A DNA stretch of 63,591 bases, counting the filler, from Folioceros fuciformis (lineage: Eukaryota): the NCBI GenBank assembly GCA_049999805.1. It is 7 parts of 7 records of this genome, joined end to end, with 100 filler letters (N's around TTAATTAATTAA, not from the genome) between each part and the next. Parts side by side here need not be neighbours in the genome. Positions count along the whole stretch, not along the records: positions 17,282 to 44,421 come from JBNGIO010004938.1; 6 more parts are not named here. One strand, written 5' to 3'. The position numbers and the translations under genes are program-made. The first letter of the stretch is position 1; every line of letters starts with the position of its first letter. The notes beneath the pieces are model-generated. The model did no database searches. It worked only from the letters and a program-made list of their open reading frames with translations, and was not told where the DNA came from. This document shows positions 1,801-44,741 of this stretch, one piece after another.

Positions 1801-1818
1801 TGGCATCGTTGCCAGGGA
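1801..1818 (+). promoter_or_regulatory. Primer-binding site, tRNA-Asp type
   Basis: TGGCATCGTTGCCAGGGA begins 3 nt after the LTR's CA and resembles the Athila-type PBS TGGCGCCGTTGCCGGGGA. Confidence 0.75.
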
Positions 1819-2064
1819 GTGACATCGATGTCAGGGTTAAGAGGGGACTAACCTGGATAGGGAGTTGGATAAGGGGATGTTGGAGGGGCTGGTGGATGCC
1901 CCGCATAGGAGCTGAAGACTTCAACTCCAATTGTGAAGAGGGAGCTCAAGCTCAAGCAAGGAGGCAGCAACAAGCATTGGAGCGTGGGCAAAGAGCAGTG
2001 GAAAGGGAGCTGAGGAGGGCACACACCACCGAGGAGGAAGAGAGGGGCAAGCAACTAGCTGATC

Positions 2065-3865: not shown

Positions 3866-4224
3866 TGGAAGGAAGAGAGGAAAGCAATGGAGTGCCAAGA
3901 AGAGAAGGAAGGAAGCTGAATCCACTACAAGATCGGAGGAGGAAGGAAAGAGCACTCCAAATGTGGAAGGGTCAGGCCATGAGGATGGAGACAAGGGGGG
4001 ACGAACCTTCAAGAGGGAAAATCAGGGACTGAAAAGGAAGCAGCTCCAGCAAAGGAGGGGAACCTGGAATTTCCACCAGATGTACGGGGAGAGGTCATGG
4101 ACATGATCCAGGAAGAGCTGGATAAGGCAGCAAAGTGGCAGGACCCGTGGTTGCCAGTGAGCCACCTAGGGAGGTGGCGGCAGTCACTAAAAGCACAGTT
4201 GGGACAGTCTAGAAGCCATCTGAC

Positions 4225-7200
4225 TTGGTTGGGGCCATCATGGATCAGCAATTTGCCGTCACCTTTGGCCAGCTCTTGAAGGACAACCCCAAATACCGGC
4301 AACAAGTCCGGAAGGCCTTGCAGGAAGCCCAACCCAAGAAGAAGAAGAGGCTGCCTAGACCAAGGCTAAGAGTGTCGGCCCCTATCAACATGGTATCCAT
4401 GGTGGATCAAGGGCCGGCTGAGTTGCAGGTGGAGATTGTTGGCTGCATGATTAAGAAGGTTCCCCTAGACATAGGTTCAAAGGTGAATATCATGACGGAG
4501 GACATCGCCAAGAAGCTTGGGTTGGAGGTGGAGCATACAACCAAAGTCTTAAGGCTGGCTGATATGTCCAGGACGCAGCCGGTAGGGGAGCTGAGAGGGG
4601 TGACCACAATCATAGGGACCATTCCCTACCTCCTGGATTTTGTGGTTATTCAGCACAAGGCACCGGGCTATGACATTTTTGCTGGGCAGAACTTGGTTGT
4701 ATGGCTCAAGGTGCAGGCTGTCATGGGGAAGGAAGGGAGTGGCCTTTAAACCACTAGAATGGGATCCCAAGACAAAGGAGGGCAGGATTTGCTTGAGTTG
4801 GAGCCGGGACACCTATTTTGGTGAGACCCCCACGGAGACGGAGGGGTATACGTCCGTGGGGGACACATCTGATTTGGAGGAGGGGGAAGGGGAAGACAAG
4901 TTCCCCTTTGCTCACATCTCATGGTTAGATGAGGCGGGGGACTACCAGAGGGACATTCCTTATTCCCTAAACCGGGTGGAGTGTTTCGGACTCACCCTGG
5001 ACTGCACCATGGTAGGGGCTGAAGGAGCAACCGTGGATGAGCAGGTTGGTGAGGTCGCTGAAGGGAAGGGCCAGAAAGGGGTTTCACATGCCAAGGAGAG
5101 TGTGAAGGGAGGGGAGATGATGGAAGGGGGCTGTGACCCAAGGTCTGATGGGCCTGGTGGTGATGATCCGGAGGTCACAAGGTTCACCTCCGAGGACCTA
5201 TTCAGAGAATGGGGAATGAGGGAGGAAGATCCCCAGGAGCCGGAAGAGGGGTATGGAGTCAACTCAGCACCGGTGGAACGTGAATGGGTGCAAGCTGATG
5301 AAATCAAGGATGTGGAGGTATTGCCAGGCAAGGTGCTGAAGTTTCCAAAACGGCTAGATGCCACATTAGAGGAGGGCATGAAGCAACTCTTGGCTAAGTT
5401 CATCGATGTGTTTTCTTTTGAGGTGAGGAACATGAAGGGAATTCCCAAAGAATGGGGTGAGCACAAGATTGACTTGGAACCAGGAGTTGTCCCTGTCCGA
5501 ATTCCACAATACAAGCTGAATCCAAAGTACTCTATGAAGGTAAAGGAGCAGCTAGAGCTGTACTTGAAGGCAAATGTGATTTTTCCCATTGTGACCTCAT
5601 AGTGGGTGGCTCCAATTGTGGTGGTGCCCAAGAAACAGCTTGGTAAGATTCGGGTGTGCTAAGATTGGAGGAGGTTGAACAAGGCTACCAAGAAGGACCA
5701 TTTTCCCTTGCCATTCATTGACAACATTTTGGATTTGGTGGCTGGTCGAATGATGTACTCTTTTTTGGATGGCTACTCCGGTTACAATCAGCTGTCCCTA
5801 AGGGAGAGTGATTGGCCATTGACAACCTTCACAATTGATTGGGGAACATATGCCTACAAGAGGAGTGCATTGGGCTGACAGGGGCACCAGGGTCCTTTAT
5901 GCGCAACATGTACAAGATCTTCAAGGATTTCCTCCACAAGTTCCTAGAGGTGTTCATACATGACTTCTACGTGTCTGGGGGAGTGGAGCAACATCTAGAG
6001 CACCTAAGGCTATGCTTGGCCAGGTGCCGTGAGATGGAGCTTTGTTTGCATTTGGAGAAGTGCTATTTTGGCATGGCTGAAGGGATCTTGCTGGGTCATA
6101 GAATTTCAGCACGAGGCATTGAAGTGGACTCGGATAAGGTGAAGGTGATTGCTGCTTTGAGGGCCCCAACCACACTTAAGGAGCTGCGTGGTTTTCTTGG
6201 AATGGTGGGTTACTACTGCCGTTTTGTGCCCAACTTTGCTAGATGGGCTGCTCCTTTGATAGGCCTTTTGAGGAAGGAGCAACCTTGGGAATGGACTGTG
6301 GAGAGGGAGGCTGCATTTCAGGACTTGAGGACCACCCTTGAGACAGCACCAACCCTCAAGGGGCCTGATTGGGATAGGAAATTTCATGTGTACGTGGATG
6401 TGTCTGCATTTGCCATTGGGACAGTCCTAAGTCAGCGGGATGAGAAGGGGAGGGACTACCCAATCTACTATGCTGGATGCCAACTCACAGAGGCTAAGCG
6501 CAAGTACACCACCACCGAGAGGGAGGCACTTGGCATGGTTTACTCATGTCGTAAATTTCGTCATTGCCTCCTCTCCTATGAGTTTGTCTTCCATGTTGAT
6601 CATTTTGCTCTCAAGCACCTGGTCAACAAGGCAGATTTATTGGGCCGAATAGCCTGCTGGATTTTGCTCCTACAGGAGTTCACATTTACCGTGGAAACAA
6701 GAGAAGGACGCAAACATGTGAATGCTGATTTTCTGTCAAGGCTAACGATAGAGAAAGTGGTTCAGGACCAGGAAGATGATTTTCCAGATGAGGCATTTTC
6801 AGCAGAGCTGGTTGGGAAAGAAAGGGCCAAACCAAATGCTAAGCTACTAGAAGATGGAGGAGCGGCGCTGAATGAGAAGGGGAGAAGGGGGTTCCGAAAG
6901 CCTTCCTACCAAGAGGTATCTGATTTTTTAGGCATGGGGGAATTTCCAGCTGATCTCTCGCGGCAGCAGCTAGGGCTGTTCCTTTATTTCACAAGGCTAG
7001 TCGTTAAGCACAAGGGCAAGCTGTATTGCACATGAGCTGATGGAGTGGAGCGTTTGTGGGTCAACCATGACCAGGTGGAGCAGGTTATCAGCTCCTTGCA
7101 TGAGGGAGAGGCTGGAGGCCATTATGCAGCCCATGTAACCTGTAGAAAAATTTTGGCAGCAGGGTATTGGTGGCCAACAATGCATGATGCTGGGGAATTC

Positions 7201-8154
7201 AGTAAGAGGTGTGATGTGTTCCAAAGGGTGGCAAAGCCTACCAGGACAACACAATGGCCATTGGTCCCCATCCTAGCCCTAGCACCATTTGAGAAGTGGG
7301 GGATTGATTTCGTAGGACCAATTTAGCCCAAGTCCAAGGGGAGGCAGAACCAATACATCTTGGTAGCAACCAACTACTGCATATGCATGGTGGAGGCTCA
7401 AGCTTTGCCCGTGGACACAGCAAATGTGGTGGCCAGATTTTTGTTTGAGCAAATCATCACAAGGTATGGATGTCCGTTAGAGCTGGTAAGTGACAGGTGC
7501 ACTCACTTCATCAATCAAGTGGTCAAGCACATGACTGAATATTTCAATATTCGTCATAGGAAGACCACTCCCTACAACCCCAAGGCTAATGGGCTCACGG
7601 AGAAGGCTAATGGGTTGTTATGCAAGATTCTCAGCAAGCTAACCGTCACATATGCTCATGACTGGGATAGGAAGCTTCATTCAGCCTTGTGGGCATATAG
7701 GACTGCGGAGAAGGTCACCACCCAACAGACCCCTTATTATCTCACCTATGGACACTCCTCGGTCATGCCAATTAAATTCGAGGTACCTACCTTGAGAATG
7801 CAGGAGAGCAACCGATTGCTAGTGGAGGAGAGCCAACTGGAGAGGCTGACCAGCTTTGTGCAGCATGATGAGGACAGAGAATGGGCCTTGGCTGCTTTCC
7901 TTGATGTCCAGGAGAGGAGGAAGAAATGGCATGACCAGAAGTTGCGTATACAGGAGTATGTCGTTCCTGGAGATTTGGCCTTATTATACGACAATAGGTA
8001 CATGCACTTTCCAGGGAAGCTGCACTTGAGGTGGATAGGGCTTTACAGAGTGCTAGAGGTGTATGAGAATGGATCCATCCAACTGCAGCACCTTAATGGC
8101 CTTAACTTGCCAACCAGAGTCAATGGCTGGCGGGTGAAGAAATATTACCATTAG
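4225..8154 (+). pseudogene. pol: Gypsy pol (protease, RT, RNase H, integrase), disrupted
   Basis: PR LDIGSKVNIM; RT KDHFPLPFID and FLDGYSGYNQ; RH DVSAFAIG...EREAL; INT H..H..C zone, WGIDFVGP, YNPKANG, GPY/F-like WIGLYRV. Confidence 0.92.
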
Positions 8155-8689
8155 TTGGCGGGGACGCCAACAAATGAGAAGGGGAGTATGCGGAGACCAC
8201 ATGGTAGGTAGATCTCTTAGAAAAATGATAGTAGCCATTTTTTTTGGATTTTGGATGAACCTTTTAGCAAAGTAGATAGGGATTTGAGCTAGATAGGATG
8301 GTTAGGTCCCTGGGTGGTTATGGTAAAAGGGTAACGGGTTCTGGGGATAAGGTGTCCAAATGGGACCCCTAGAACTTGTCATGGGAAGCGAGTCGGGGCC
8401 TTGGGAGGGTGCTGGTGGAAGCGGGGGTTGGGTATAGAGGTGATTGGACCCAGATCCGAGGATGGGGCCCAGGGTCCTGGGAGCGGGCTAAGGATTCTAA
8501 TTTTTTTTGCTGTAGCGTAGTCAAGGCTAGGAGCCGGCTGATAGATAGGATCAAATTAGGGCATTGTGCAGAAATCGTAGGTAAGCTTGACACTAGTTCA
8601 CTCCCTTGGGAGCGAATCATACGACTGCAATGATAATAAGGGGAAGTGTGGCCCTTTTAGTGGCTCTTGGGTGTAAGAACCACTCCACA

Positions 8690-12844: not shown

Positions 12845-13723
12845 CCCTTTGCTTCTAACGGCCAACCGCCTTCCTATGTAATGGATTCATTCTATCAATA
12901 GAAGGTGTGTTCGCGTGAAAGTGCTGTCGCTCATGGTATCAGAGCCTCAACAGGCAATCTGGGCCATGTTGTGAATCTAGCATACCTATCATCGCTGACG
13001 ACCTCTTGCATCTATAAGTGCTGCTGCGCAATTATGTCACACGACGCATTTAGCTGGACTCGAAGTCACGGATCACGAAGAACTCCAAGAACTTACGATC
13101 TTTATTGGCTCACACGGGCTGAAGAGTTCAACCATACCCAGAGCCGGCAGCAGCAGCACAGGCGCTTTCTGAATACAGAGCGCGTTGTCCTTCTGGTCAT
13201 GCAAGGGAAAGCTCTCTAGATCAGTAGGCAATCCAAGATCTCGAGGTCAAGGTGGATCAGTTGCTAGAATTGACATACCTGACTAGGTCCGAGGCAATTC
13301 ATGAAGGCAGGCATCACGGAGCCCTCTGACTCCAACTCGAGGACTTAGTTGATGCTGTGGACGCCGTAAGAAACACCTTCTGCAAATCTTTGGAACAAAT
13401 TATCATTCTATTATCACAGCTATCGAAGCCGTCAGAATCCCACACACGAGCCTGTTCGGAATCAGATCACAAGCCAGAGTCGGAGACGCGTGCACCTACC
13501 TCAGCCGATCCTGACATAAGTCTGAGATTGTAGACGCGCATGAGCGCGCCCCCGACTCCATTGCCTCTTCCACCTACACCTCCCAAGCATACTATTAGAA
13601 TACCAGGGAGAAGAGGAATGGCGACGGTCAATAACAACTACACAACCTTCGATTTTAAAGAAAAGGACAGGTTCTCAGGGAAAGACTTCGAAATTTGGGC
13701 TGCAAGGCTCAAATCTATATTAG
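12845..13723 (+). mobile_element. Copia 5' end (LTR end 12933, PBS-Met 12934-12945, leader ORF, gag start 13618)
   Basis: CA-TGGTATCAGAGC junction; MATVNNNYTTFDFKEKDRFSGKDFEIW. Confidence 0.85.
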
Positions 13724-18439: not shown

Positions 18440-19464
18440 GCAAGCTACAAAAGTCTAGCCCCAGGCTGAGCACGCATCACAAAGCCTTGCAACGACGTCC
18501 TAGTTCAATTGATGCACCGTCCAGGTTGAGAAAACGATCAATTTTGTCTGTAAGTGCATCCAGTTGAGATTGTATCGTGAATATGCTGCAAAGTATCTGC
18601 GTCGTCCGATTCCAAGTGAGATCCTCGCTCCTGGTAATGTCTTGCTGCAGGAGTTCTCCGAGATTGTAAAAGTGGGTAGATGGAGGATCGTGTTCAGCAT
18701 GGAAATTTGAGTCCTGAAAATGAACTCTGCTCCTTCCTTGGCTTCGTTGATGCAAACAACGGGAGGAAACCGAGCTACTTCTTTGCAGGATAGGAGGAGA
18801 AGGAGAAAGGTGACCTATCCAATTTTCTGTCAAAATCTTCAATTGATATAGCACCTTTCTCCTTGCAAGCAAACTATCGAAGTCTTGTGTGACAACTGCA
18901 GGTGTAGACGTCTGAAGGAAGACCGCCTTCACCCTCAACCCTACAGTCCAGCTCTGTAAAGGATCTTGACATCCGGGGCCTAGCCTCATCTAGATAGGGA
19001 ATTGATTCCCCAACATACGGTACATAATACTGATTTCTAGACTTCGAGGCATTTCAGGATGACCGGAAAAATGATACTGCTTAGAATCATTTAGAAAATA
19101 GAAACAGCAAGTTCTAACATGCTTTGTGCAGGCTAAGAGAAAACTGGTTGTCAACCAGCCTACTTTTCATGTAACATGAAAAAGGAATGGGCTAACAACC
19201 CATTCTTCTTTACTTAGCTTCTACATTTGCAAAAAGAAAAATTAGAATGTTGCAGTGGAAGATCTCAAAGCAATCACCAGTGCTCTAATACCATGTAAAT
19301 ATCTAAGGATAGACTAGACACTTTTGCTCATAATAGCAATTCAATTAATAACTGAAAAGAATAAAGTTTAAATAGCCAAAAGTATGGATAACCCTAATCA
19401 GGGTTATACCCAAGTATAAATGTATGTGTAACCTAAGCAGGTTAAACTAATGATTACTTCAACA
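18440..19464 (-). mobile_element. Copia 5' end (LTR 19294-19464, PBS-Met 19282-19293, leader ORF 18477-18989)
   Basis: GCTCTAATACCA followed by TGTAAA...TTCAACA; nested in the element to its right. Confidence 0.7.
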
Positions 19465-22400: not shown

Positions 22401-23678
22401 CAAGTCGCTCTCCCTCATCTTCCTGACTAGCCATGGTAGGTGATGTTTAAAGGCCACGACTATGTCGTGTGTGTGCTAAAGATCGTAGGATTGCTTAGGA
22501 AGATTGATTATGTGAAAAGAGAAATTAATTGATGCGCGGGCGGTGCACCCGTTGTACAAGTGCACGGGCACCGAACCGGTGTGTCCCGTGACTGCGGCGT
22601 TCTATTGTTGGGGTTGTGACCGTTGAGGTCACGACGCTTGCTATCTAACTTAACTAAATAACATTTAATTAACTATGCTATTTATGACTATTATAACTAT
22701 ACTATCTTTATGTGCTGTCTTGGAGGAGATTTCACTAGATGATGCTCCAATCATATCAAAAACAAAATCTACAGGTAAAAATGTGAATTTCTGCTGGGAA
22801 CTTTTAGACATTTTAGTATTTAATTCTTCAATGCATTCAGCTGAATGATTGACGGCACACACCAAAGACGGCAACTGTCCACTAATGACATTATGTCTAA
22901 GTTCTGAATCTGTTTTGATAGATTTAAGGAGGAGCTACAAAGAATCTATGCTACTTATTACAATAGGACCAATACGTAGATTAGGAATGTGTTTGAGTGC
23001 TAGAACTAGAGATTTTACTTGTGATAAACTAAAACAAGTAAGTAAATCTCTCTCAGCCACCTTAATCAACTCTCTTTGATTCTCTAATTTTATAAGGATA
23101 GCACCAATAAAATTGCCAATAAATTTAGAATCTAGAGGAGACCAATATTAATCAGAACTCTTTTCTTCACAAAAAAAAAGAATCTCTTTCAATTAGATCT
23201 ATAAATTTGTTGGAATTATTGAAATTGGTTGCGTTCTCCATTGATGCAACCTTCAATCTCTTCCTACTTCTTTGCCCCATCAGAAGGATTCAAGAAGATG
23301 ATGCACAATTTGTGCATCATAAAAATATGATGTTGAGCATAATTGTAAAGTCTCGTCCAAGCCAAAATTCCATGCTGCAAAATTAGTAATGCACAAAAAA
23401 ATTCATGCCTAAAGAGGAGGCAAGCAAGGTGCTCAAGCATTTAGAGCCAAAGCTGTGATACCATGATAAGAATCACACACAAATGCACTTGCAAAAGAGT
23501 TTTGTAGAGTTTCATTACTTAATAGAAAGTACAAGAGTGTTGTCGTGGCACCAGACTTATTTTATAATAATAATATATAGTAACCTAGAAGTATGCTGGC
23601 TATATATGTAATTTTGGCCATTAGGAAATAGCTATTAATTAGCTTACCCCATATAAAGCTATTTAGTTGACATTATCA
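19465..23678 (-). mobile_element. Copia element (5' LTR 23464-23678, PBS 23452-23463, gag-PR-INT), degenerate and truncated
   Basis: LTR TGATAA...TTATCA; gag FKEKDRFNG, RG repeat, WYLDSG protease, WHCRLGH, LELVHTNICGP, PQQNGVAE. Confidence 0.88.
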
Positions 23679-26761: not shown

Positions 26762-27007
26762 TCTTTTCTATTTTTACCTTTCATTTTGTTTCACTGGTAC
26801 CCATATTAGAGACTTATTGAAGTATAAAATGTCTTGAGAAATTACAAAAAAAGGAAAAGCAGCTCCCGAGTAAAATATATTTCCCGAGGTTGCCTTGCGC
26901 CCTAAAGAGCAAAGCGGCCGTTTTATTACTCTACGTAGTCGCAGTCTTATCATTGTGTTTGCGTTGGTCTCGTAATCGACTGTAGGCGCACCTGCGGCTT
27001 GTTTGTG

Positions 27008-30000
27008 ATGGCGAGAGCTCTTGGTCGTGTGCTTTCTTCTTTGTCCCCTGTTTCGAAGGGACAGTGTGAGATTGCGTCTCCACCGTTGGAAGCATGTTTT
27101 CTTCCCACAGAAAGTTATCTGGCCTCAGGTGGCAAGTATTGCGCAAAGATGTGTGTGCGCGAAGCCAGTGTAGGCCACACCATGTCTCGTCGGGGGCTTT
27201 CTCTTCTGGGGCTATCTGCGATGTCTTTTCATAAGACTGTCAAAACGCATAAGGGCTCAAGGTCTATATTCTGCCAAGCTGCGGCTGCCGATGCAGAGGG
27301 GAGTGATTCTAGAGGTCTCACAGGGTAAAGAATTCTACCACCTTTTTTTTTGGCTGCTCTGTCCCTTCATCTCTGAGGTGTGCTTGCCTTGTGTAGGTTC
27401 GAAAAGCTCAAATTTGACCTTTGTGCCCGGTATCCAGCACTGGTGACAACCACCCTGTTCTTCATGTGGTATGTAACAAGCGTGCACAGGTTTTTGGCTA
27501 TAGGCCATCGATCTGGAGTTACTGCAAATACGGCTCAGTAGCTAGTGAAGTGTCTGACATGGTTAGTTGGCACTCTCGGGGCGATGACTGCTTACCATCG
27601 TCGAGATCGGGCTTATGTGTGTGTGTAGCAGTGTAGCAAGTAAGTATTCGTTCTTCTTGTTGTGATGCCTGTGCAGGTACGTTCTTAATGTTATTTTCAA
27701 CATCATGAACAAAAAGCTTTACAACTACTTTCCTTATCCTTAGTGAGCGACTCCCGCTTTATGCATTTTCAAATGAAATTGGCGAGTTTGGTATTGCTTG
27801 CACTGAGCTCATACTGACATTCTTCGGTACAGTTTTGTTTCAGTAATACATTTGGTGGTCGGTGTTTCCTATTGTACGGTCTGCTGGGCGTTAGGGATGC
27901 CTAAACGTGCTGTAAGTGTCTAGATTGTCTGAACATGCAGCTTTTCTATCTTCTAGCTAATCTATGTAAAAAGATTAACGTTGCTGTGGTGTTTGTAATG
28001 ATGTGGTGCAGCCTGTGGACAAAGAGCTGTGGTTATTGCTCATGCCGGTATCGTTTTGCCATGCATTGGGTCATGTGATGACAAATGTTTCTTTTGCTGC
28101 AGTTGCAGTATCTTTCACTCATACAGTTAAAGGCAAGGGTGATCCCAGGCTATCGTGCAATTTAAGCTTGTCTGCGCTTTATCTCTAACGAGCTCTTGTA
28201 GACCTAACAAAAACTGTGATGCCCTCTATTTTACTTCCGCAGCTCTAGAGCCTTTTTTCAATGCTGCTGCTTCACAATTTGTTTTGGGTCAACAAATACC
28301 ACTGTCTCTTTGGCTATCATTGGCACCTGTTGTCCTAGGTGAGCATCCCTTTCAAGGTGAAAGTCACTAACTACATTGCATTTGACGCCAATTGGTTCTA
28401 GGTAACCCTCTTGGATGGTTAATGGAGCCTTTAATCCGTTCTCTTTGTTATATAGCTTTGTGGCGAATGTGTATGACTTGTACCCTCTGCTGACACAGGT
28501 GTCTCAATGGCTTCCATGACTGAGTACTCCTTCAATTGGAAGGGTTTCATTAGTGCCATGGCCTCAAACGTTTCTTTCACATATCGTAATATTTACAGTA
28601 AAAAAGCTATGGTAAAATTGAAAGATGTCAGCTTCAGGTTATTCTGTTTTTAATGTGCGCTTTCTGGTCATGGATTAATACTGCACGCTCTGCAGACAGG
28701 GATGGACAGCACCAATGTCTATGCATACATCTCAATATTGGCCATGCTGTTTTGCATTCCACCTGCGGTTGTGGTAAGAACTAACTAGTGAGGAATACTT
28801 GTGGTCCTGTCTTGCCTCTCCTCTTTCTTTTTGTTCGCTTTATTATAATGTTGAAGCTGGGTCATCTTTGTGTTGGTGGATTGTAAGAAAGTCAAAAGGG
28901 GAGTAGAGTTATTTGTTCTCCATTGACGGGTTGAGTGCGAATGCAAGCACTGAAGGTCCCTCTTGGGTGTGGCAGATTGAGGGCCCAAAGTTACTGCAGT
29001 CTGGCTTTGCTGACGCAATTATGAAAGTTGGTGTAGGGAAGTTTCTGTCCGATCTTTTTTGGGTTGGCATGTTCTACCATTTGTACAATCAGGTAACGCA
29101 GCTCGTAAATTTTGATATTGTGCTTGCATTTCTACTCCATCAGTGAAAAGCCAAGTTAGTTGTGTTGTGATGGCAGCTTGCGAATAACACGTTGGAGAGA
29201 GTAGCACCTCTGACACATGCTGTCGGCAATGTTCTCAAACGTGTCTTTGTGATAGCGTTCTCTATCATCGTGTTTGGTATACATGCAACCGAATATCCCA
29301 ATTTCTCTCCTTTCATGGTGCTTTAGCTATTCGATGTGGAGATTTTCTTTCGTTTGTACATTTTGGTGGAATCCTTATTCTGATGAAGAACATCGTAAAA
29401 GCTGTCAGTGTTAGCAGGGCACACATAAGATGGTTTTATCATAGCGGTGTGGACTTCTGTTTGATGGTTGAAGAGCAGGATGTGCTTTGAACTCAAATAA
29501 CTGTGCTGCTGTGTACCTGGCTTGTGTCTTTACCTGGTAATCACTTATCTTAAATCTATTCTTCCCTTATTTTCCTTGCACAGGTAACAAGATTTCGATG
29601 CAAACTGGCGTTGGCACTATCATTGCCATCCTTGGTGTTGCAACCTATTCATTCATCAAGGCTGGGATGGAAGCCTCAAAGCTGTATGTTTGCTGTTCTA
29701 TTTCAGTTTTGCAAACAGTGTCACGTGGAAACGTATTACAGCATGAGTATGAACTTGCAGAAACTAATTGTTGTGGATCGGAAGCGCGCTGGAAGCTATT
29801 TGAGCAGGGTTGCAATGAAACACCCGCATCCCTTGGCATGTTCGCCGTAGTTCGAGGTGAGATATGGGTCCAACAAGTATGTGACCACATTAGACACACT
29901 AGACACACTCACATCGCAGATTGGCTGTTACCTCCAACTTGGTGTTTCTTGAATGAGAGTGAGTTCGCACGTTTTGTTTCCCGCTCTTCCCTGCGTGCAC

Positions 30001-30167
30001 AGTGTACGGACTTTCGCTGGTGGCTCAGGCTCCGTCGTCGTGCCACGTCCCTTTGGTTACGGCAGGGCGTGCCCCGACCCTGGAGTTGGCTGCGGGCATA
30101 GGTGGCCGTGCGGGCACGTATCGAGCTCTCCTTGTACAGGAGAAAACGGGAAGAAATGTGCTCCTAG
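27008..30167 (+). CDS. TPT: Plastid triose-phosphate/phosphate translocator, 12 exons (~428 aa): 27008-27324, 27397-27468, 27677-27742, 27833-27911, 28012-28132, 28243-28338, 28499-28611, 28696-28773, 28976-29092, 29177-29276, 29584-29683, 30140-30167 (last exon tentative)
   Basis: Spliced translation gives a transit-peptide-like N-terminus, then [75 protein letters not shown]. Intron phases are consistent and total length (1287 nt) is divisible by 3. Confidence 0.93.
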
Positions 30168-30689
30168 TTGTGTTTAGGTCGTCCGAGGAATGTCCCTTTG
30201 CGATTTTAAACCCGCTACATTTCAAAGGAATTATCCACATGGTTTTTAAGCAGCAAATGCTAATGGGGTAAGATTTCCGCGGCTGAAAAGCAATGACTGT
30301 CACAGTGTATTGGCTGAAATGTATCACCACTTAGAGGAATGTGTCTGAATTCTGGTTTTTTTTTCCTGCACATGGATTTGATTACAGTTGACCACTTGAT
30401 TTAGGCCTCGTAAGTCGGTAGCTGCAGATGGAAGACAGCTAGTCTCCACACCACTTCACGTTAGCTGGCATAATCAAGATTTGTGGTCCTTAGCGGTCCT
30501 TTATGACAGCCCAAGGCTGAATCTAATGGTGAAAAAGTGATTTTGGTACAAGCTCTTGTACTCCCAATGAAGATGGCCTCAAGTTTCTCTCTTGTAGCAA
30601 TATTGCTGAAAAATTGCGGATAAGAAGTAGGCCTGGCTGGTGAACACTTCGTGGTACACATAAACAAAATTCTAAATAAGTTCCCTTAT

Positions 30690-31275
30690 TTTGAAAACAT
30701 GTGTGATTTATTGTGATGAAAGAATGATGGGAGGGGCCCATCTAGGAGGGTTTAAATCAAAAAGGGACCCGGAGGTCGAGGTGAAGAGGAGCAACTGAGC
30801 TCCCTACCTGAAGTCACCGATTGCACCCACTATGTCGTATGCAGGGAGAATAAACAGCTTGCAAACCACGGGGTAGAGGAAACTGCATCACCTGCTGTCA
30901 CTGCCTTGTGAAGGATCACCGTTGTGAGCGCTCGTTGAAGGGCGATAGAAACCAACTGTTGAAAATATGTTGTGAAGTACGAGAGGGACAGCCCTGCACT
31001 ATGCCTGCGCACATGGTAAGCTTTGGCACAGGACTTGACGAATTTGTCAAAGTCCTCCACCATTGCCCCATACGTTTCTAGTGCAAGTGGGATAAAGAGG
31101 TGGCCCGCTTGCATCCTGCTATATTTGCGGACCTTGAGAGCCGCTGCACGGGCAGTAGCCTAGCCCAAATGGTTGGTGATGACCTGAGCAGAGGTAGTGT
31201 CACGTGCGGGGTTAGTAACCACTACATTTGCCACCACAACCTGGTCACCACAGACAAGGTACATGTCCGCCCTGA
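30690..31275 (-). mobile_element. Non-LTR retrotransposon 3' fragment with restriction-like endonuclease (CRE/R2-type)
   Basis: RADM...NVVVTNP...KVRKY...FIPLALETYG...QQLVSIALQRA with one internal TAG; AATAAA lies downstream at ~30707-30712. Confidence 0.7.
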
Positions 31276-31289
31276 TTAAACGACTTATA

Positions 31290-34200
31290 CGAAGAGTATA
31301 CCCCCGCTCCCTCCAGGCCAAGGACAAGTGGGAGAAGGCGATGTAGTCGCAGATGGATTCGCTCCATAAGAACCAAACTTGGGAGTTGGTTCGGTTGTGT
31401 AAACGTTCTGGATAGAACAGAGACAGCCAGAGCAGAACAAAAATTGATTGAATTAATTAACAAGGGTCTCATATGTCTTTTATATCTAAACCTAATCACG
31501 AACGGTCAAATGTCCAATGATCACATACGGTCTATAAACAATAACCTAAGTGCGTGTGGGTTAACCAATGTACATATGCGTATATATTCTAACACTCCCT
31601 CTTACGCTTCACGAGCCTAAAAAAAACCATGCATTCACATGGTCGGGAACTTGGTACGCGCCATCTACTGAACTCGAGAGCAACGTGGCAAAGCCCTTAA
31701 GATGGCGGTCGTCCTTCCCTTCTCCACCCTGATTGCCATCATCCAACTCACCTGCTTCACAATCATCCAGCTCTTGCTGTGCACCGCCATGTCAACAGCA
31801 AGCGAGATGAGCAGCCTGCAAGCCGAATCTGCGACGAAGGCCAAAGGGGAAGAGGTCTGCTCTTCAGGGGACATTGCCACCACCAACTAGGAAGAGCCCT
31901 AGATTGCACAAGGGCGTCCCTTCCGATGACTGGGACGAGAGTCACACTGTTGCGCAGTCCATAAAGCTTCGAGGGTACGTAGTCAGTATGGAGGGCCGAC
32001 TGCGCTGGGGAAAAATAACTGAGGAGGCTGTAGAGCCGCCTCCGACTCAAGACGAACTTGGAGAGGAGATGAGCTTGGTTGGTCAGCTTCAGGCAGTGGC
32101 AGCGCTGTTGAATCAGATCAAAGAGTCCTCCAAGGTTGTGGCTGAGTGTAGGGCGATTAAATTCACGTGAGGCTTCATCCGCCCTACCTGGCCTTTGATT
32201 CCTGTTCTCCCTCACATTCTAATAGTCTGTTAAAACATGTGCCTGTGGATCTATGTAGGAAGTAAGGGCCTGGCAGTGTTGGAGGCTGGTGACAACTACG
32301 TCAAGCTATAGGACCATCAATCACCAATCAGAAAGCATAGGCTCCCACCCCCACACACCCACCAGATACATACTGTGCACTCTATTTTGCGTCCTTGAGC
32401 ATGTAACCTGTCAGGTCGCAAAGTCCAAGTCCCTCCATATACTAATAATGTCTCGATTTGAGTAGGGCCTTGGTCAACACATTTGCTGTGTTCTCGTCTA
32501 TGTGGACATAATCGACTTTCACAACAGCACGCTCCACCACATCTTTGATATAATGGTGTTGTATCTCTATGTATTTAGTTCGGGCATGAAACCTAGAGTT
32601 TGCAACAAGAGCCAGGGCAAACATATTATCGCACAAAAGAGGAGTTGGCCTCATGTGCTGCTGGCCCAAGTCTGCAACGAAAGTCCTTTCCCACTTTGCC
32701 TCTTTTGAGGCATCAGTCAAGCTTTTGTATTTTGCTTCTGTGGACGAGAGGGCAATAAAGGCTTGCTTTTTACAACTCCAATTGATGGCCGCATTTGCAA
32801 GAAGGAAACAATATGTCGAAAGGCTTTTCCTGCTATCACAGTCAGATGCCCAATCGGCATCAGTGAATTCCTTTAAGGTAAGATGTTCTTGTCCACTGCT
32901 TTTATAGCATAGTCCATAACATTGGGTGCCCTTAAGGTAACGGAACACTCTTTTGGCAGCTACCCAATGCACGCGACCAGGGTTTTCTAGGAATTGGGAG
33001 AGTGTGCTCACAGAGGATTGAATATCTGGACAAGTCCAATTACCTACAAAGATCAGGCTTCCTATTGCATGTCTATAGGGCACATATGCCATTTCCCTTT
33101 TCTCTACCTCAGATTGTGGACATTGCAGGCTTGTGAGTTTAACTCCCATGGCTGAGGGTGTAGTTGTTGGTCGTGCTTGGTCTAGCTTGAACTTAGTCAA
33201 GATATCCTGGATGTATTGGTACTGGTGTATCATTAGAAGCCCCTCAGATCTCACACGAAGTAGCTGGATACCTAGGCAAAATTTCAGTTCTCATATATCC
33301 TTCATTTCGTATTTGTTGCTCAACATGGATTTCACTTCTTCTAATAGTTGTGTGTTGCTGGCAGCTAGGATCACGTCATCGACGTAGAGGGCGAGCACGA
33401 CATATTCCTTGCCTCTTGTGAGCCTATAAACATTGTTGTCGGCTGCACTCTGTTTGAATGATCTGATAAGGAGGTAAACGTGGATGTTCAAGTACCAGAC
33501 TCGGCCACTTTGCTTTAGACCATAGATGGTCTTCAACAGTTTGCACACCTTCTTGGGATGATTTTTATCTTCATAGCCCTTAGGCTGTGTCATATAGAGG
33601 TCCTTGTCTAGTGCTCCATAGAGGTATGCCGTGCACACGTCCATTTGATACAATTCCAGGTTATATTCTACAGATAAAGCTAGAATCATTCTGATTGATT
33701 GTGATCTCACAACAGGAGAGAAGGTTTCTTGGTAGTCTAGTCCCTTGACCTGTGTGAAACCCTTGGCAACAAGTCTTGCCTTGTATCTAGCTATCTCACC
33801 TTTGTCATTCAACTTGAATTTGAATACCCACTTACAAGATGTGGGTTTCCTGTCAGGCGGCAAGTCCACCAATTTCTAGGTATGGTTTTTGACGAGGCTG
33901 TTGAACTCGTCATCAATTGCAAATTTCCATTTGTCTTTTTCAAGGCTTGAAAAAGCCTCTTTTAGCGATTTAGGTTCCAAGTCAATTGTGGTTGATGCAG
34001 CATGTATAGCTTCAGCATAAGATGTGCGGAAATCGATGGACTGGTATCTAGGCTCCTTCCATTCTTCAGGAGGTGGCTTGTGCCTGCTGGAACGTCTTGG
34101 AGGAGGGTCATCCGACGGGAGGGGTTCTTCCTCAATTTTTGGTCCAGCATCCAGCACATCAAGAGCATCAGGTAAACCTCCTGTATCATCAGCCTGTGCT

Positions 34201-37200
34201 GCATCTTCCTGGAAATTCAGATCATGAAAGTTGTCCTCATTGCCAGGAACCGTTTACAACATCGTCTACATAGCCTTGTGCCTGGTTAGTAGGATCCTGT
34301 TCATATGGATGTGGATGGACAGGATCAAGGTTTGCTGGAGCCGATATCACTTGTGCTGGGTTAGGGTCTACGTCGTCTAGGAAGTCAAATTCAGATGTTT
34401 CTTCTTCCAAATTTTCTCCCTCAGCAGCTGAATTGGCTCCCTTAGAATCCAAATGGGAATGAAAACCTGGAGTAGCAGGGCGTGTAGGCTCAATGAAGGT
34501 GACAGGCCTGGCCAGAACAGCTAGCTGTCTGTGAGGTAGGATTGTATAATTTGTACGCCTTGGAGGTTTCACTATATCCAACAAAGATGTGGGCTTGAGC
34601 CCTAGGGTCTAACTTCTGCCTCTTCTCTTCAGGTATAAGTGCAAAAGCAAGGGATCCAAAGACCCGTAAGTGCAGCAAGCTTGGTTTTCTGTTCCACATG
34701 GCTTCAAAAGGTGTCTTCAAAGGGGCGGAGCTGGTAAACAATCTGTTGAGTACATATGTAGCAGCAACAATAGCCTTGGCCCAAAATTGTTGAGGTAATC
34801 CAGCCCAGAGAAGCATGCTACGTGTCATGGATAGGAGGATTTGGTTCTTGTGTTCGGCTACACCATTCTGCTGTGGCGTGTATGGAACAGTCAACTGCCT
34901 CTATACACCATGTTCATGTAAGAATGCATCAAAGGCTGTATTCAAGAATTCTGTGCCATTTTCAGTCCTTAAATACTTGACTGAATTTCTTGTCTAGTGC
35001 TGTACAGTTACAAACCAGTCCTGGAATGTGGCGAAGGAATCACTCTTGAGTTGTAAAGGGTACGTCCAGGTATACCGTGAGTAATCATCTGTGATACTTA
35101 GGTAGTACAAAGCACCGCCTAGTGAAGGTACTTGGATTTTCCTTGAGATATCTGCGTGCAAAAGTTCTAGGACAGCCTTTGCTCTGTATGACGCCAAGTG
35201 TGGAAATGGATGCTGCTTCTGCTTGGCTATGATGCAAGCCTCACAAAAAGGGAGGTCCTTAAAACATCGAGGTAAAGGTTCCTTATGACATTCCTATAGA
35301 GATATATCTACCAACTTGTGGTGGTTCACATGACAGAGGCGAGCATGCCACAAGACTGCTAATTTTTGTGTATCTATGGATGCTAAACCCACTACTTGCT
35401 TATGTGTGAAAATGTCCGGCCTGTACAGATCATTTTCCAGAATGCCTTTTTAGACGTACAAGGATGAGTCAGTATTTCTGTAAAATAGGCATATGTCATC
35501 TGCAGCCTTCATGTGGTAGGTCCTCTGCTGCATTAGTTTGCTCAGGGACAGGAGGTTCTTTGCCATTGATGGCACATACAGCTCATCCTGTAGGGTCAGA
35601 ATTGATCCATCATGAAGACTGAACTTGCAGATACCTTGTCCTTGTATTTGCAAACTGGTCTTGTTTTGTTTGTCACCCAAAAGCACTTTTGATGTGGACT
35701 GGTGTGAATCAAGAGTGAAGAACTGTTTTTTGTCCTTGCATATGTGTGAGGTTGCGCCGGAATCCAAGTACCAGCTCCCTTCCTTTTGCACAGAACGGGC
35801 AAGACATACAATAAGGATCTTCACCGATGGTTTGGTGTCACTTGATTGTCTGTCTTTAATGGTGACATTCGCAGCGCTCTTAGTAGCACNNNNNNNNNNA
35901 GGTTCACCAGATTTCTTCTTCTTACACTCTCGGGCCCAATGACCAGAAATTTCGGACCAGTTACAATTCCCTGGTCTCTTGGAGGATGACGAACCATTGT
36001 CAGGTTTGCCACTTGCTGGAGGTCGTGTTGCCTTGGACTTGTTTTTGTTAGGTCAAAAGCCTGTAGCTAACACCTTTTCTGCTTTGTTCTTAGGTGCACT
36101 AGTAGAATTCAAACGAGACTGCTCCTCTTGGTACAAAGCACCAATCACATCTTCACATGTGATTGTGCTTGCAGAACCTCTAGCAACTCCACTAGGTTTG
36201 ACAGGTCCATTCTGTGTTGTGACGAAAGCTTGATAAGATGGGGGCAAGCTAGAAAGTAACCTTGCCACAGCCTGAGACTAAGGTATCGTTTTGCCAGTCA
36301 GCGAGGTAATCTGTGCTCGTAGTTGACGAAATCGGCTTGTATGTGCCGAGATCTTGTCTCCCTCCCTCATCTTCAATGTGTACAACTCTGTCTGTATGGC
36401 ACAAAGACTCATCATATTTTGACTTTTGTATGTCTTCTCCAACTGATCCCACATGTCAGCAGCGTCTGTGAGATGTTTGACATCCGGCACAAGGTCCACG
36501 TCCAGGCCATTGATTAGGAGAGCAACAACAATGCTGTTGTGCAGGTCCCACTTGGCAATGTCGTCAATTGTCGGCTTGTTTGCTCCAGTGGTAGAAGGGT
36601 TTGGTTTTGTGTAAGTTTTGTCCACAATGTTCCAGACAACTCGCGCCAGCAGGATGACCTTGATGCAAACACGCCAAACAGAATATCGGTTCCCATTGAA
36701 ATGGTCTTTCTCCTTTAGCTCAAAGGTAAAGGTTGGACCAGACATTTTTATGGGTTTGGGATTCGGCTTTGTCTTGGGTCTTATGTTAAACTGACCAAAT
36801 TGTTGAGCTAGTGCATCGATTTGTGCAGTGGACATGCAGATCTAATTGAACACCTGAAAACTACGGCTTCAAGATGATTTAGGTACACCTAAACGTCCTG
36901 TAACATTCATGTTAGCTCATGCATCACGTTTTGATATCAAACTGACCAAGAGTGCAGGGNNNNNNNNNNNNNNNNNNNNNNNNNNNNNNNNNNNNNNNNN
37001 NNNNNNNNNNNNNNNNNNNNNNNNNNNNNNNNNNNNNNNNNNNNNNNNNNNNNNNNNNNGCACGCGGCGGAAAGGACAGAGACTTATCCTAGCCTTCTCT
37101 TGCTAACCTCCTCATCAAAGTGTTATTGGTTTACTTTAACACTTGGCCAAATGTTATGCAGGTTAGTTTAGAGAAAGGAAGGTAATGACGTTTCATTCCT

Positions 37201-39431
37201 TGACCTAGCTGCCATGTCCCGGTCTGCTGAACAGGTGCAACTCTTCTAAAGAACCTATCAACGTGCAAGGGACACAATGCTGTGAAAAGGGCACCAATCT
37301 GGTTGCAGCGCTTCAGATCCTGATGGCCTCTTGTGCTGGTGCAAGGCGCTCCCGCCTTTGTTGTGCAGCGGAAATTTCAGGTTTGCAAGCCATCAGCCGA
37401 GGACAGAATTGGTAGGCTGAATTCTCCCTCGTCTTGGGTTTGCACAATGCTCCCTCATGTTGCAATGTGCAGATCAGACAATTGTTGTGTGATAGAAGCC
37501 ACAAGATTCTTGATTATTTGTAGCTTCGCTTCGAAAATCCAAGGGATTTGATCAGCTGTTCGTGGTTCTGTCTTCAGATCGTCAACTCTGATCTTCAGCA
37601 CTTCTTGGTTTGACAGCAAACGTGACAGAGTCCTCTCCACACGAGCCACGGTGGCCAAGGTCCTGTCAGCAGTACCTTGGCTAGTTTGTGGAATTGAATT
37701 TCTGTCTATTTGCTGATCACGTCGTGTTGCTGTGGTTCTAGGTTGGAAGAGAGACTCGACAAGGGGCAATTCACGTGCTTCATAGCGTAGATTGTGATTC
37801 TGTCCCCTTTGTTGACAACGTGCTTTATATAACCTATCCGTAATTGGATTTCTATGTGCACTTTGAACTCTTAATCTCCCACTAGAATGGGTTTCTGTAA
37901 AACTTCTAAGGCAAATTTCTGGGTAGTTCTGCTCGTATAGGTCTAGCACGGTATTTGGTGGTACAAAGGAATTGGAGACATGTCATCCATGACGATGTCT
38001 CCTTTTTGTGTCTAGATTACGTGCATTCCTAGCAGACGCTCCCTGCCCCTAGGCATTCTGCATGGAAGTTGCTGAGATGCAGAGCATGGGCTCTGATACC
38101 ATGTAAACGTTCGGGATAGAACGAAGACGGCGAGAGCAGAACAAAAATTGATTGAATTAATTAACAACAAGGGTCTCATATGTCTTTTATATTTAAACCT
38201 AATCACGAACGGTCAAATGTCCAATGATCACATACGATCTATAAACAATAACCTAAGCGAGTGTAGGTTAACCAATATGTACGTATGCGTATGTATTCTA
38301 ACAGGTTGCCTAAGGACAAGAAGGCATTGCCATGCAAATGGGTGTATAAGATGAAGGACATACCCCATTATGGCAAACCCAAGCACAAGGCACGATTGAT
38401 TGCTAAGGATTTAAGCAAAAGCAAGGTATTGACTTTGATGAGATTTTCTCACCGGTTGTCAAAATGACCACATTGCGATGTGTTCTTGGTTTGGTTGCAA
38501 GGCACGACATAGAACTCGTCCAGATGGATGTGAAGTCGGCATTTCTATATGGTGATCTCCAGGAAGAGGTATACATGTAGCAACTAGAGGGTTTCATTGA
38601 GAAAGACAAAGAGAATCTGGTGTGCAGGTTAAAGAAGAGCCTTCATGGTTTGAAGCAGGCACCCAAGGAGTGGTATTTCAAGTTCCACTCATTTATGCTT
38701 TTTCAAGGCTACAAACGTAGCGATGAGGATCATTGCCTCTATACGAAGCAAGCTAAGGATGGAAGCTTGCTCATTTTGGTCCTCTATGTGGATGATATGC
38801 TAATAGTGATGAGATTTTAGCGTTAAAGTCAAAGTTGAATGCTCGCTTTAACATGAAAGACTTGTGAGAAGCAAGTCATATTCTTGGCATGCGTATTTGT
38901 CAAGACTGACAGAAGCGTTTGCTTTACCTGTCTCAGACTAAATACATTTACAAGGTGCTTCAACGTTTCAATATGGAAAAGGGGAAGGTATTGAGTACTC
39001 CATTGCCTTCATATGTGAAACTTTCAAGCAAGGATTGCCCAAGGTCTGCGAAGGACAAAGCTGAAATGGAGAAGGTTCCATACTCATTAGCTGTAGGGAG
39101 TTTGATGTATACAATGATTGCTACACGTCATGACATTGCCTTTGCAGTGGGAGTGGTTAGCAGGTTTATGTCAAACCCTGACAAGAAGCATTAGGAGGCA
39201 GTGAAAGGAGTTATGAGGTACTTGAATGGTACAAAAGCTTTGTGCTTATGTTTTGGTAGTGAAGATGCATCTGTAGTGGGATATACAGATGCTGATTATG
39301 GAGGGGATATGGACAAAAGGAGGTTCACATCAAGTTATGTCTTCATGTGCACTGGAGGGGCAGTCTCATGGTGATCTTGTTTGCAATCGTACATAACGCT
39401 ATCTACCATAGAGGCCGAGTATGTTGCAGCG
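31290..39431 (+). mobile_element. Older Copia RT-RNase H fragment split by the 31398-38303 insertion
   Basis: KNQTWELVRL (to 31397) continues as PKDKKALPCKWVYK (from 38309). Also [21 protein letters not shown]; many stops. Confidence 0.9.
31398..38303 (-). mobile_element. Full-length Copia element with both LTRs and 5-bp TSD (coding region degenerate)
   Basis: LTRs 31398-31594 and 38102-38303 (TG..CA, ~12 substitutions and 2 indels by eye); TSD GGTTG; PBS-Met 38090-38101; PPT 31595-31603; gag-PR-INT-RT-RH at 36835-32442. Confidence 0.96.
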
Positions 39432-42804: not shown

Positions 42805-44207
42805 CGATGTCCAACTTAAGTTGGACGCCCATTCGCGAAACAGTGCCCCCGTATCAGGCACCTGTTCACAATGGGGTGGACACTAACGGGTTGCCACCCG
42901 TTCATTGTAACGGCATGCCCGTTCAACAGAAAGGTGTGACCCCTTATTTGCCTAAAGGGGGTTCTAATTTATTTTCAGCTTGCTCTCCTTATCAATGTTT
43001 TTCTGATATTCTCCAGCAGAAAAAGGCATTGATGCTAGTGGACCTCCTCCATAACCTCAACGGATTTTGGCAATGAGACGTGTTCCTCCCACTTACAACA
43101 CCAACCTGGGGACGTCATTAGCATTTCCTTTTGTGGCAATTAAGGAGGAAGCTAAATCACCTCCACCAATTGAGCGATTGGAAGCTGCCTACAAGGAGTA
43201 CAAGTTTCAAGAAGCTCAAGGTCAAGCATCCACTTCAGCACAAACTTCCCAACACTACCAAACACTTTGGCATTAATTTAGCGACATCAACACCAGCCTA
43301 GTCAATGTTGTTGAAACTATTTGCAAAATTGAGTTAACTTTTGGTAGCCAAGGGGTTTAAAGAGAACTATCTAGCTGAGAAGGATTACCCAGCTGACTAG
43401 AAGGAGTAAGCTGAGCTATATTCACTTTCCTTGTAAGGTTCTGACAATATCTTCTGCTCTTAATATATTTGTGTTATTCTAAGTTGTGTGTCATAACACA
43501 TTGCTCGCTTAACCTTGTTATTAAAGACAAAGATATAATAATTACATACATTTATTAACAAAAATGTCAAGAACCAACACTCCTTTACCAACCACCTCTT
43601 CTTCTATGGCACGTGTAATAAATGTTATGAATGTCTCTATGGACATTAAAGAAAAGGATCGGTTCAATGGCACCAAGTGTGAGAATTGGTTCAGAAGGAT
43701 GAAGATGGATTTAAATACTTGTGATCTTCTTCCTCTTGTTGAGGGGAATCTCCTTCAACCCACTGGTCTTCAACTAGCTATCAATGCCTGGCTGAAGCTA
43801 GATCATCAAGATATGTACATGTTGGTGTTTGGTCTTAACAAAAATATTCTTCATCATACCAACGGCGCCACAATCGCTGTTGAAGCTTGGAAGCAGATTA
43901 ATGACATTTATCAATCAACAAATGTCATGACCTTGGTCACTGTCCATAAAGACTTCTATACTCTTCGGATGCAACCAAGAGATAGTATTGCTCATCATGT
44001 GAGCTGGTTTTGGTACCTCCGGGCACAACTGGCTGCACTTGGAACTACTATGTTTGAGTTTGATCTTGCTGTCCAACTTTTAGAGTGCTTCCCGGCTAGT
44101 TATCAATTGTTGGTCTCTTCTCAAAACCAGATCGTCTGGACGTCTCAACAAACCGTGGCCACAAGTGGGTGGTCAATCCACCTTAATAGTGTTCGAGCAT
44201 GTGTGTG
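42805..44207 (+). mobile_element. Copia leader and gag fragment
   Basis: ORF from 43564 reads IKEKDRFNG...FYTLRM...LLECFPASY; interrupted at 44208. Confidence 0.8.
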
Positions 44208-44421: not shown

Positions 44422-44741
44422 NNNNNNNNNNNNNNNNNNNNNNNNNNNNNNNNNNNNNNNNNNNNTTAATTAATTAANNNNNNNNNNNNNNNNNNNNNNN
44501 NNNNNNNNNNNNNNNNNNNNNAAGCTATTTTGAATTCTATCTTAAACATAAGAAGTACTGTTTTGGAGTACACAACTAAGGCTGATAATCTGCAGGCAAG
44601 ACAGGAGAGACTTGAGAATCTGAGGAACTCAGATCTAAGAACAATGGTACAGCAAGAAAAGGAAATAGATAGCCTCAGGGAGCAGCTTGCTCGCCTAACG
44701 GCTACACCACTTTAAATTAGGAACTCTCACTTACAGGCATC

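Follow-up and report, generated by a model that had tools for sequence, protein, structure and literature searches.

The window, the whole 63,591-nt stretch of Folioceros fuciformis DNA analysed here, contains a Copia element on its minus strand, in the part from record JBNGIO010004938.1 (window 17282-44421), which we call the focal element. It measures 6.9 kb from LTR to LTR, with 12 mismatches and 2 indels between the 5' and 3' LTRs. The LTR pair has TG..CA ends and, together with a 5-bp target duplication and a tRNA-iMet primer binding site (PBS), gives it a Ty1/copia identity; the order gag-protease-integrase-RT-RNase H with RVT_2 (Pfam) is found in the window elements at 44742 and 51056 and, in pieces, in the focal element. 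Its features are the following:

38304-38308 and 31393-31397: target-site duplication GGTTG, on both outer LTR flanks
38102..38303, minus strand: 5' LTR, 202 nt, paired with the 3' LTR
38090..38101, minus strand: tRNA-iMet PBS, complementary to the host's own tRNA-Met genes
37377..38056, minus strand: ORF0 in its family-level extent, about 226 codons, with an MPR start 45 nt past the PBS
37458..37982, minus strand: open ORF0 remnant, 175 stop-free codons, including the peptide of the earlier note
37464..37649, minus strand: coiled-coil part at the C terminus of ORF0, whose last stretch (37493-37464) is a leucine-rich pattern like an export signal
37365..37373, minus strand: D-arm box, 9 nt, directly 3' of the ORF0 stop
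36960..37059, no strand: 100-N assembly gap within the ORF0-gag spacer, hiding about 19 nt by alignment with locus L002
36745..36835, minus strand: Gag N-terminal extension, with a weak AUG1 (36835), an export-signal pattern (36811-36782) and a strong AUG2 (36745)
36281..36835, minus strand: first open piece of gag (PF14223, DUF4219), with the KEKDHF motif at 36715
32442..35889, minus strand: pol in pieces (integrase, RT, RNase H)
31398..31606, minus strand: polypurine tract and 3' LTR, the latter at 31398-31594

The earlier note had described a 164-aa sense ORF between PBS and gag at 37455-37949. A stop-free frame does lie there, between the PBS (38101-38090) and the gag AUG (36835), but it has no AUG of its own and is the open middle of a longer, broken ORF running from 38056 to 37377. 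The damage in this copy consists of one frameshift within the first codons and stops at 37985 and 37457, and relatives in which the frame is intact or longer were found at three loci (L007, L049 and L172). A DNA search returned 9 matches; in relatives, the family ORF runs from the MPR start to just 5' of the box TTCCGCTGC. The concern that the 100-N gap divides the ORF from its gag falls away: since both LTR flanks bear GGTTG, ORF0 and gag share one insertion with one LTR pair, the gap hides few nucleotides, and at L002, L007 and L008 both are present without an intervening gap.

About 1 kb separates the focal element from the end of an expressed host gene upstream in the window (26947-30440, plus strand). 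This gene has 10 or more GT-AG introns, 72-307 nt long, and we take it to resemble a plastid phosphate translocator. Its splicing and the host's tRNA-iMet genes point to a land plant; rbcL had no match in the assembly. RNA run X1 covers this spliced gene and not ORF0 or gag, and carries no weight either way on their expression. A repeat at 30703-31320, at whose edge the element is inserted, matches a 3283-nt contig of the same run at about 90%; its ORF at 30830-31114 gave no Pfam match. Elsewhere, the window holds a Gypsy-type element (1594-8689, plus strand) with 204-nt LTRs that are 91% alike and a broken gag-pol. The contig joints (9667-9766, 13724-13823 and five others) read 44 N, TTAATTAATTAA, 44 N, and the features flanking them are not neighbours.

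Leader ORFs across the genome and their selection

We collected leaders genome-wide through a Gag search (150 of 1934 candidates scored) and a PF14223 search (150 of 2253). Among 170 loci examined, 107 had a PBS within reach; of these we discarded 4 as duplicates and 4 because their PBS was internal and false; near-identical copies were kept and the Gag search favours the focal subclade. Because the copies are kin, the counts are not independent. The leaders with a KEKDRF-type Gag (n=87, median 1090 nt) were compared with 12 other Copia leaders of three Gag types. A sense frame of at least 130 codons occurs in 62 of the 87 as opposed to 1 of the 12, and an antisense frame of that length in 5/87 and 2/12. 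The sense frame exceeds the antisense one in 84 KEKDRF-type leaders and in three of the others, and an MPR start 25-220 nt past the PBS was found in 61/87 and 0/12. At clade loci with a readable leader and gag-pol open over at least 1250 aa from its true start, an open AUG-initiated ORF0 of 155-235 aa is present in all ten, a count that leaves out two loci whose gag contains a stop and one whose leader is N. The earlier claim of an ORF before gag in every Copia with a visible leader is true only within the KEKDRF clade. Outside it, one Copia family (L148, L228, L232, L237, L238 and L240) has GC-rich, repetitive leaders of 600-730 nt, in which we found no consistent sense ORF.

In the RT phylogeny (74 rows, midpoint-rooted, without an AU test), 35/35 KEKDRF-type rows fall in one branch of 40 with support 99/91. 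The rest of that branch comprises the database proteins P0013 and P0019 and three elements of the window that had no leader or Gag start assigned, one of them being the focal pol; the focal RT is sister to L052, inside the clade. Six other Copia RTs of this genome and 28 database rows lie outside. The best identities among the database RT matches listed are 35-55%, and a motif scan recognised a KEKDRF Gag only in P0019 among the 120 RT matches listed. Within the clade, the distance from the ORF0 stop to the gag AUG is 0-26 nt in basal families and 220-630 nt in the focal subclade.

We measured selection by pairwise Nei-Gojobori dN/dS on natural copies; the values are rough because dS is high and partly near saturation. 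In the focal family, ORF0 gives 0.25-0.43 (5 pairs; upper bounds 0.37-0.67), and the window copy 0.27 (0.15-0.40) against L007, while the two alternative frames give 0.64-1.34. Other ORF0 groups lie at 0.15-0.36, with the exceptions of L058/L034 (0.60), the window copy at 22665 (0.71) and one close pair (0.59). Taken over 12/12 pairs, ORF0 ranges over 0.14-0.60, gag over 0.03-0.29 (10 computable) and the spacer frames over 0.42-1.88. In most pairs dN of ORF0 exceeds that of gag roughly 2- to 10-fold, and the fastest-changing part is the disordered middle. The check set beforehand, on open frame and dN/dS, thus returned a conserved frame with ORF0-frame values mostly of 0.15-0.45, and we have little doubt that ORF0 codes for a protein. 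Conserved position, selection and confinement to a clade show ORF0 to be a genuine accessory gene, belonging to a single clade of Copia. As a separate observation, L040 and L016 differ in dS between ORF0 (0.57) and gag (0.135), which suggests a leader swap by recombination.

Six further candidate ORFs of the window were followed in the same way:

44524..44715, plus strand: 3' end of ORF0 of another family, its 5' part lost at the contig start; dN/dS 0.15-0.36
22600..23290, minus strand: ORF0 of a third family, broken here (PBS at 23463); L089 and L090/L143 have 180 aa open
13033..13533, plus strand: ORF0 of a fourth family, broken by 4 stops in 13033-13530 (PBS at 12934)
43055..43340, plus strand: ORF0 of a fifth family, broken here (no PBS visible in the window); L117 has up to 220 open codons
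11211..11564, minus strand: leader ORF, PBS at 12099; dN/dS 0.47, 0.69 and 0.96
18480..18989, minus strand: mosaic open frame whose halves match different loci; an ORF0 remnant is possible in the 3' half only

The first of these stops 29 nt upstream of its gag AUG (44742), and its near-identical copy L151 has an ORF0 of 173 aa with an MPR start. The third family yields 0.27-0.34 among relatives, the window copy alone being high. Relatives of the fourth have 136-138 codons open, with one stop ahead of the gag frame, and give 0.20-0.24 in their two divergent pairs; the fifth gives 0.15-0.25 in the ORF frame (the offset-2 frame). Of the seven ORFs put forward earlier, five families (37455, 44530, 22665, 13034 and 43067) prove to be under purifying selection, although the copies at 13034, 22665 and 43067 are themselves broken. 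The other two fare less well: 11208 spans 0.47-0.96, and the mosaic 18477-18989 did not pass for selection, with dN/dS above 1 in its 5' half and 0.48 in its 3' half (interval up to 1.01).

The ORF0 protein and the Gag extension

Of 53 ORF0s collected, 18 were removed as duplicate, truncated or frameshifted, and the remaining 35 intact ones are 100-236 aa long (median 185 aa). The 53 fall into 20 BLAST clusters. The earlier note saw no clear homology among the ORFs, which is true for the seven of the window; the ORF0s of the focal subclade, on the other hand, are mutually homologous. Searched against a set of 59, a focal-cluster profile matches several neighbours (E 2e-7 to 2e-3, where coiled-coil bias is possible) and none of the basal-group ORF0s.

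AlphaFold models of L172 (pLDDT 71, pTM 0.35) and L151 (pLDDT 72, pTM 0.33), from unrelated groups, have a common layout: a basic flexible tail, short helices, a disordered linker and one long C-terminal helix of 72 or 63 residues, respectively, mostly at pLDDT >90. The first 30 residues of ORF0 have a median net charge of +5 and are 17% Arg. A trimer model of L172 residues 110-205 scored 0.70 against 0.00 for the best control, and the runs have at least 77% of contacts in common at pLDDT of at least 77. The score mark was reached by 21/30 solved homo-pairs and 0/23 single chains in a microbial calibration with two copies; coiled coils pass such models readily, and the trimer was the sole stoichiometry tried. 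The 60-70-residue C-terminal helix is thus predicted to oligomerise as a coiled coil. Together with the sense frame linked to Gag type, the purifying selection and the single RT clade, this supports the earlier proposal that a Copia lineage carries an accessory ORF0 which evolves fast and forms a coiled coil.

Searches for homologs with alignment A1 gave 0/2359 candidates. Exhaustive HMMER with A3 produced a single match among 1.84 billion, the unnamed P0001 (one 1170-nt contig), which possibly comes from the same or a close host, being much like L172. No Pfam match passed the cut-off in 12/12 ORF0s, the best hits of an Atlas search (0.75 and 0.80) lie under the useful level, and Foldseek against PDB and viral structures gave no ORF0 match at E<=0.001. 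A Gag-profile search of longer proteins listed at least 11 matches at 22-29%, which is weak evidence. An Env-like protein was considered and rejected, as 1/35 ORF0s reaches hydropathy 1.6 over 19 residues and the position is 5', not 3'.

We also looked for nuclear export signals, whose consensus was taken as hydrophobic residues in x3-x2-x1 spacing. The pattern occurs in the last 75 aa of 23/35 ORF0s (9.2 expected from shuffles), leaving 12 without, and in the last 35 aa of 8/16 cluster representatives (1.8 expected), clustering 20-31 residues from the C-terminal end across unrelated groups. It overlaps heptads, and its enrichment over earlier helical triples is weak (13/35 vs 20/100, p=0.07); in the trimer model, 3/4 of its hydrophobic residues are buried.

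The pattern is clearer in Gag: 37 of 67 distinct N-terminal extensions of at least 22 aa have it, against 7.1 expected, and most of these belong to the focal subclade; it is present in 2/55 database Copia starts, many of which are mis-called. Since the sequences are kin, the Gag extension represents a single event or very few. In 33/35 such Gags the pattern is followed by another AUG in frame, and a purine at -3 is found at AUG1 in 0/33 and at AUG2 in 28/33. This pair of start codons fits two putative Gag forms made by leaky scanning: a long one with the N-terminal export signal and a short one without, a use that we infer. At the gag starts of L046, L170-L171, L177, L180, L205 and L207, the export-signal extension gives way to a run of acidic residues and, after it, an aromatic motif.

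The D-arm box and the routes to gag

The box TTCCGCTGC is exactly complementary to nt 12-21 in the D arm of the host tRNA-iMet (nt 12-20 for the 9 nt marked in the focal element). The pairing was first seen in 17 leaders, mostly chosen with the box known; among unselected leaders the box is present in 43/87 of the clade and 0/12 other Copia, and basal families are without it. It lies mostly within 12 nt of the stop of intact ORF0s and 600-760 nt from the PBS. In the available text of PMC5371799, a second site of yeast Ty1 and Ty3 pairs with the D arm of the primer tRNA. By these contacts, ORF0 seems to be flanked by two halves of an extended primer site; unlike in Ty1/Ty3, the box here is 600-760 nt past the PBS, with ORF0 in between. 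At L057, L200 and L204 the box comes early (200-265 nt) and is followed by a shorter coiled-coil ORF with an MPSRR start (100 aa in L057, 127 aa in L204).

As ORF0 occupies the 5' end, gag-pol needs another route. Long-spacer leaders have 6-28 AUGs upstream of gag, too many for scanning to reach it; pure leaky scanning through the leader was rejected, AUGs being reduced merely to 66-74% of expectation. A YAG ends 3-12 nt 5' of the gag AUG in 33/48 elements (background 36%), and some of these YAGs are the stop of ORF0 itself. The excess suggests a candidate splice acceptor, and the long-spacer subclade would probably use a spliced or subgenomic RNA entering just 5' of gag. We found no conserved splice donor in the leaders; the PBS sequence is donor-like, and conservation is uninformative there. 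In short-spacer families, gag is probably reached by reinitiation. A telo-box promoter in the spacer was rejected, as the telo-box occurs only in a minority of elements. A motif like GCCATAG stands 15-40 nt 5' of the gag AUG in 21/48 elements (L040, L042, L043, L049 and others).

Proposed function and rival explanations

Our tentative reading, to which we give slightly less than an even chance, is that ORF0 is an accessory RNA-binding oligomer helping the export or hand-over of genomic RNA. Among the long cistrons of the full-length RNA ORF0 would come first, and its small protein product has a predicted layout of Arg-rich N-terminal tail, two or three short helices, disordered linker and 60-70-residue helix. 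Its basic end would bind the element's own genomic RNA, on which the protein would multimerise, and by analogy with Rev-type proteins and CERV it would move that RNA from the nucleus and on to Gag. Of the Rev-like features, the oligomerisation domain is found in the model only, and the N-terminal composition fits a putative Arg-rich segment for RNA binding and nuclear import; RNA binding and export are functions that we infer from composition alone. A point against the export role is that an export factor made from its own cargo RNA needs an initial leak. Retroviral Rev, for its part, is made from spliced RNA. We found no similarity of ORF0 to CERV or to retroviral Rev, Rex or Rec.

As far as the available text of PMC10309623 goes, the LTR element Cer1 of C. 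elegans has in CERV an oligomeric accessory protein that bears candidate nuclear import and export signals, and Cer1 Gag also has a predicted export signal, comparable with the Gag extension here. CERV differs in being 517 aa long, spliced and partly derived from the 3' ORF of a Gypsy-type element (PMC10309623). A fuller scheme, which we consider unlikely, combines a Rev-like adaptor ORF0 from genomic RNA, a spliced gag-pol RNA and a CRM1-shuttling Gag from a leaky AUG beside the bulk Gag. If it were true, the gag-pol RNA would drop the PBS and ORF0, so that mRNA and genome would be separate pools.

Somewhat less probable again, ORF0 might be a particle-associated structural protein, that is, a cytoplasmic coiled-coil oligomer binding nucleic acid and capsid as caulimovirus P3 and badnavirus P2 do. 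According to the parts of PMC4974523 and PMC10885806 available, these viruses encode small, poorly conserved coiled-coil proteins that bind nucleic acid, before the capsid gene, and ORF0 has the same ingredients (basic start, coiled coil, small size). ORF0 has no sequence or fold match to them at E<=0.001, although the viral family is itself divergent. The comparison is with viruses, the CaMV protein is tetrameric and the coil is N-terminal in caulimovirus ORF3 (PMC4974523, as available) but C-terminal in ORF0; moreover, the export-signal pattern on Gag would be left unexplained.

It is a shade less likely still that ORF0 is an anti-silencing or host-evasion factor binding host proteins or nucleic acids in the nucleus. 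Rapid amino-acid change under moderate constraint and the loss of similarity between subclades (20 BLAST clusters for 53 ORFs) would fit an arms race, and badnavirus P2 has been assayed for suppressor activity, according to the design given in PMC10885806. However, the fastest change lies in the disordered middle, which needs no arms race, and the protein layout is retained across groups.

We regard as rather improbable that ORF0 is a detached N-terminal Gag domain, fused to Gag via stop read-through or splicing. The basal ORF0 stop lies 0-26 nt 5' of the gag AUG and is in frame in L143, L153 and L250, the commonest YAG offset (6 nt, 15/48) is in frame with gag, and Cer1 Gag bears an N-terminal coiled coil in the available text of PMC10309623. 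Nevertheless, the frame relation is variable (L138, L146 and L151 are out of frame), and the spacer of the focal subclade, 220-630 nt, contains stops and AUGs. Finally, composition or RNA structure might account for the frame, or it might be a regulatory uORF with an irrelevant peptide. Such an origin would fit the lack of a named database homolog, the many broken copies and the two window examples of seven that fail, but is very improbable and largely refuted by a dN/dS well below 1 in the ORF0 frame only, a third-position excess, dS of 0.4-1.9, which leaves little constraint on the RNA, and start and stop positions that are kept.

With the exception of SIRE, Copia elements of plants are generally regarded as consisting simply of gag-pol. 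Upstream ORFs have been described in Gypsy and rarely in Copia. In the available part of the REXdb survey (PMC6317226), 5' extra ORFs are reported for the Gypsy lineages Tekay (33%), TatII (23%) and Ogre (21%) and are absent from 14/16 Copia rows; Bianca (5%) and Ikeros (4%) apparently have entries in the 5' forward column, although two numbers are printed per row and the column is uncertain. The survey's cut-off for an extra ORF was 250 codons (PMC6317226), which 0/35 of our ORF0s reach, so that it could not have seen them. Gypsy ORF0 (Tekay = Retrosat2/RIRE3/RIRE8) is described in the accessible text of PMC3485330 as a sense frame between 5' LTR and gag, faster than pol and without known function. 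The ORFs of Ogre, Tekay and TatII resemble ours in their sense position before gag and in evolving faster than pol, but belong to another superfamily, and Ogre/Tekay have the Gypsy domain order as opposed to the Copia order here; our ORF0s are 100-236 aa and 12/12 lack a Pfam match. With the Ty1/copia lineages of REXdb, the elements have in common the tRNA-Met PBS, the 5-bp duplication and the single gag-pol frame, while SIRE/Sirevirus has its extra ORF 3' of pol in about 10 kb, as opposed to a 5' ORF in 6.9 kb in the focal element (PMC6317226, as available). Among openly accessible papers, our literature search found no account of a Copia clade with such an ORF0.

The available text of a 2025 review states that RNA export of LTR retrotransposons has not been directly studied in plants (PMC12786077). 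ORF0 and the Gag export-signal extension offer small, concrete handles on this process, and the layout raises the question of how gag-pol is translated behind a 200-codon ORF. A diverse Copia clade, with about 20 ORF0 clusters in one genome, has kept a 5' accessory gene under selection even as the sequence of that gene changed beyond recognition.
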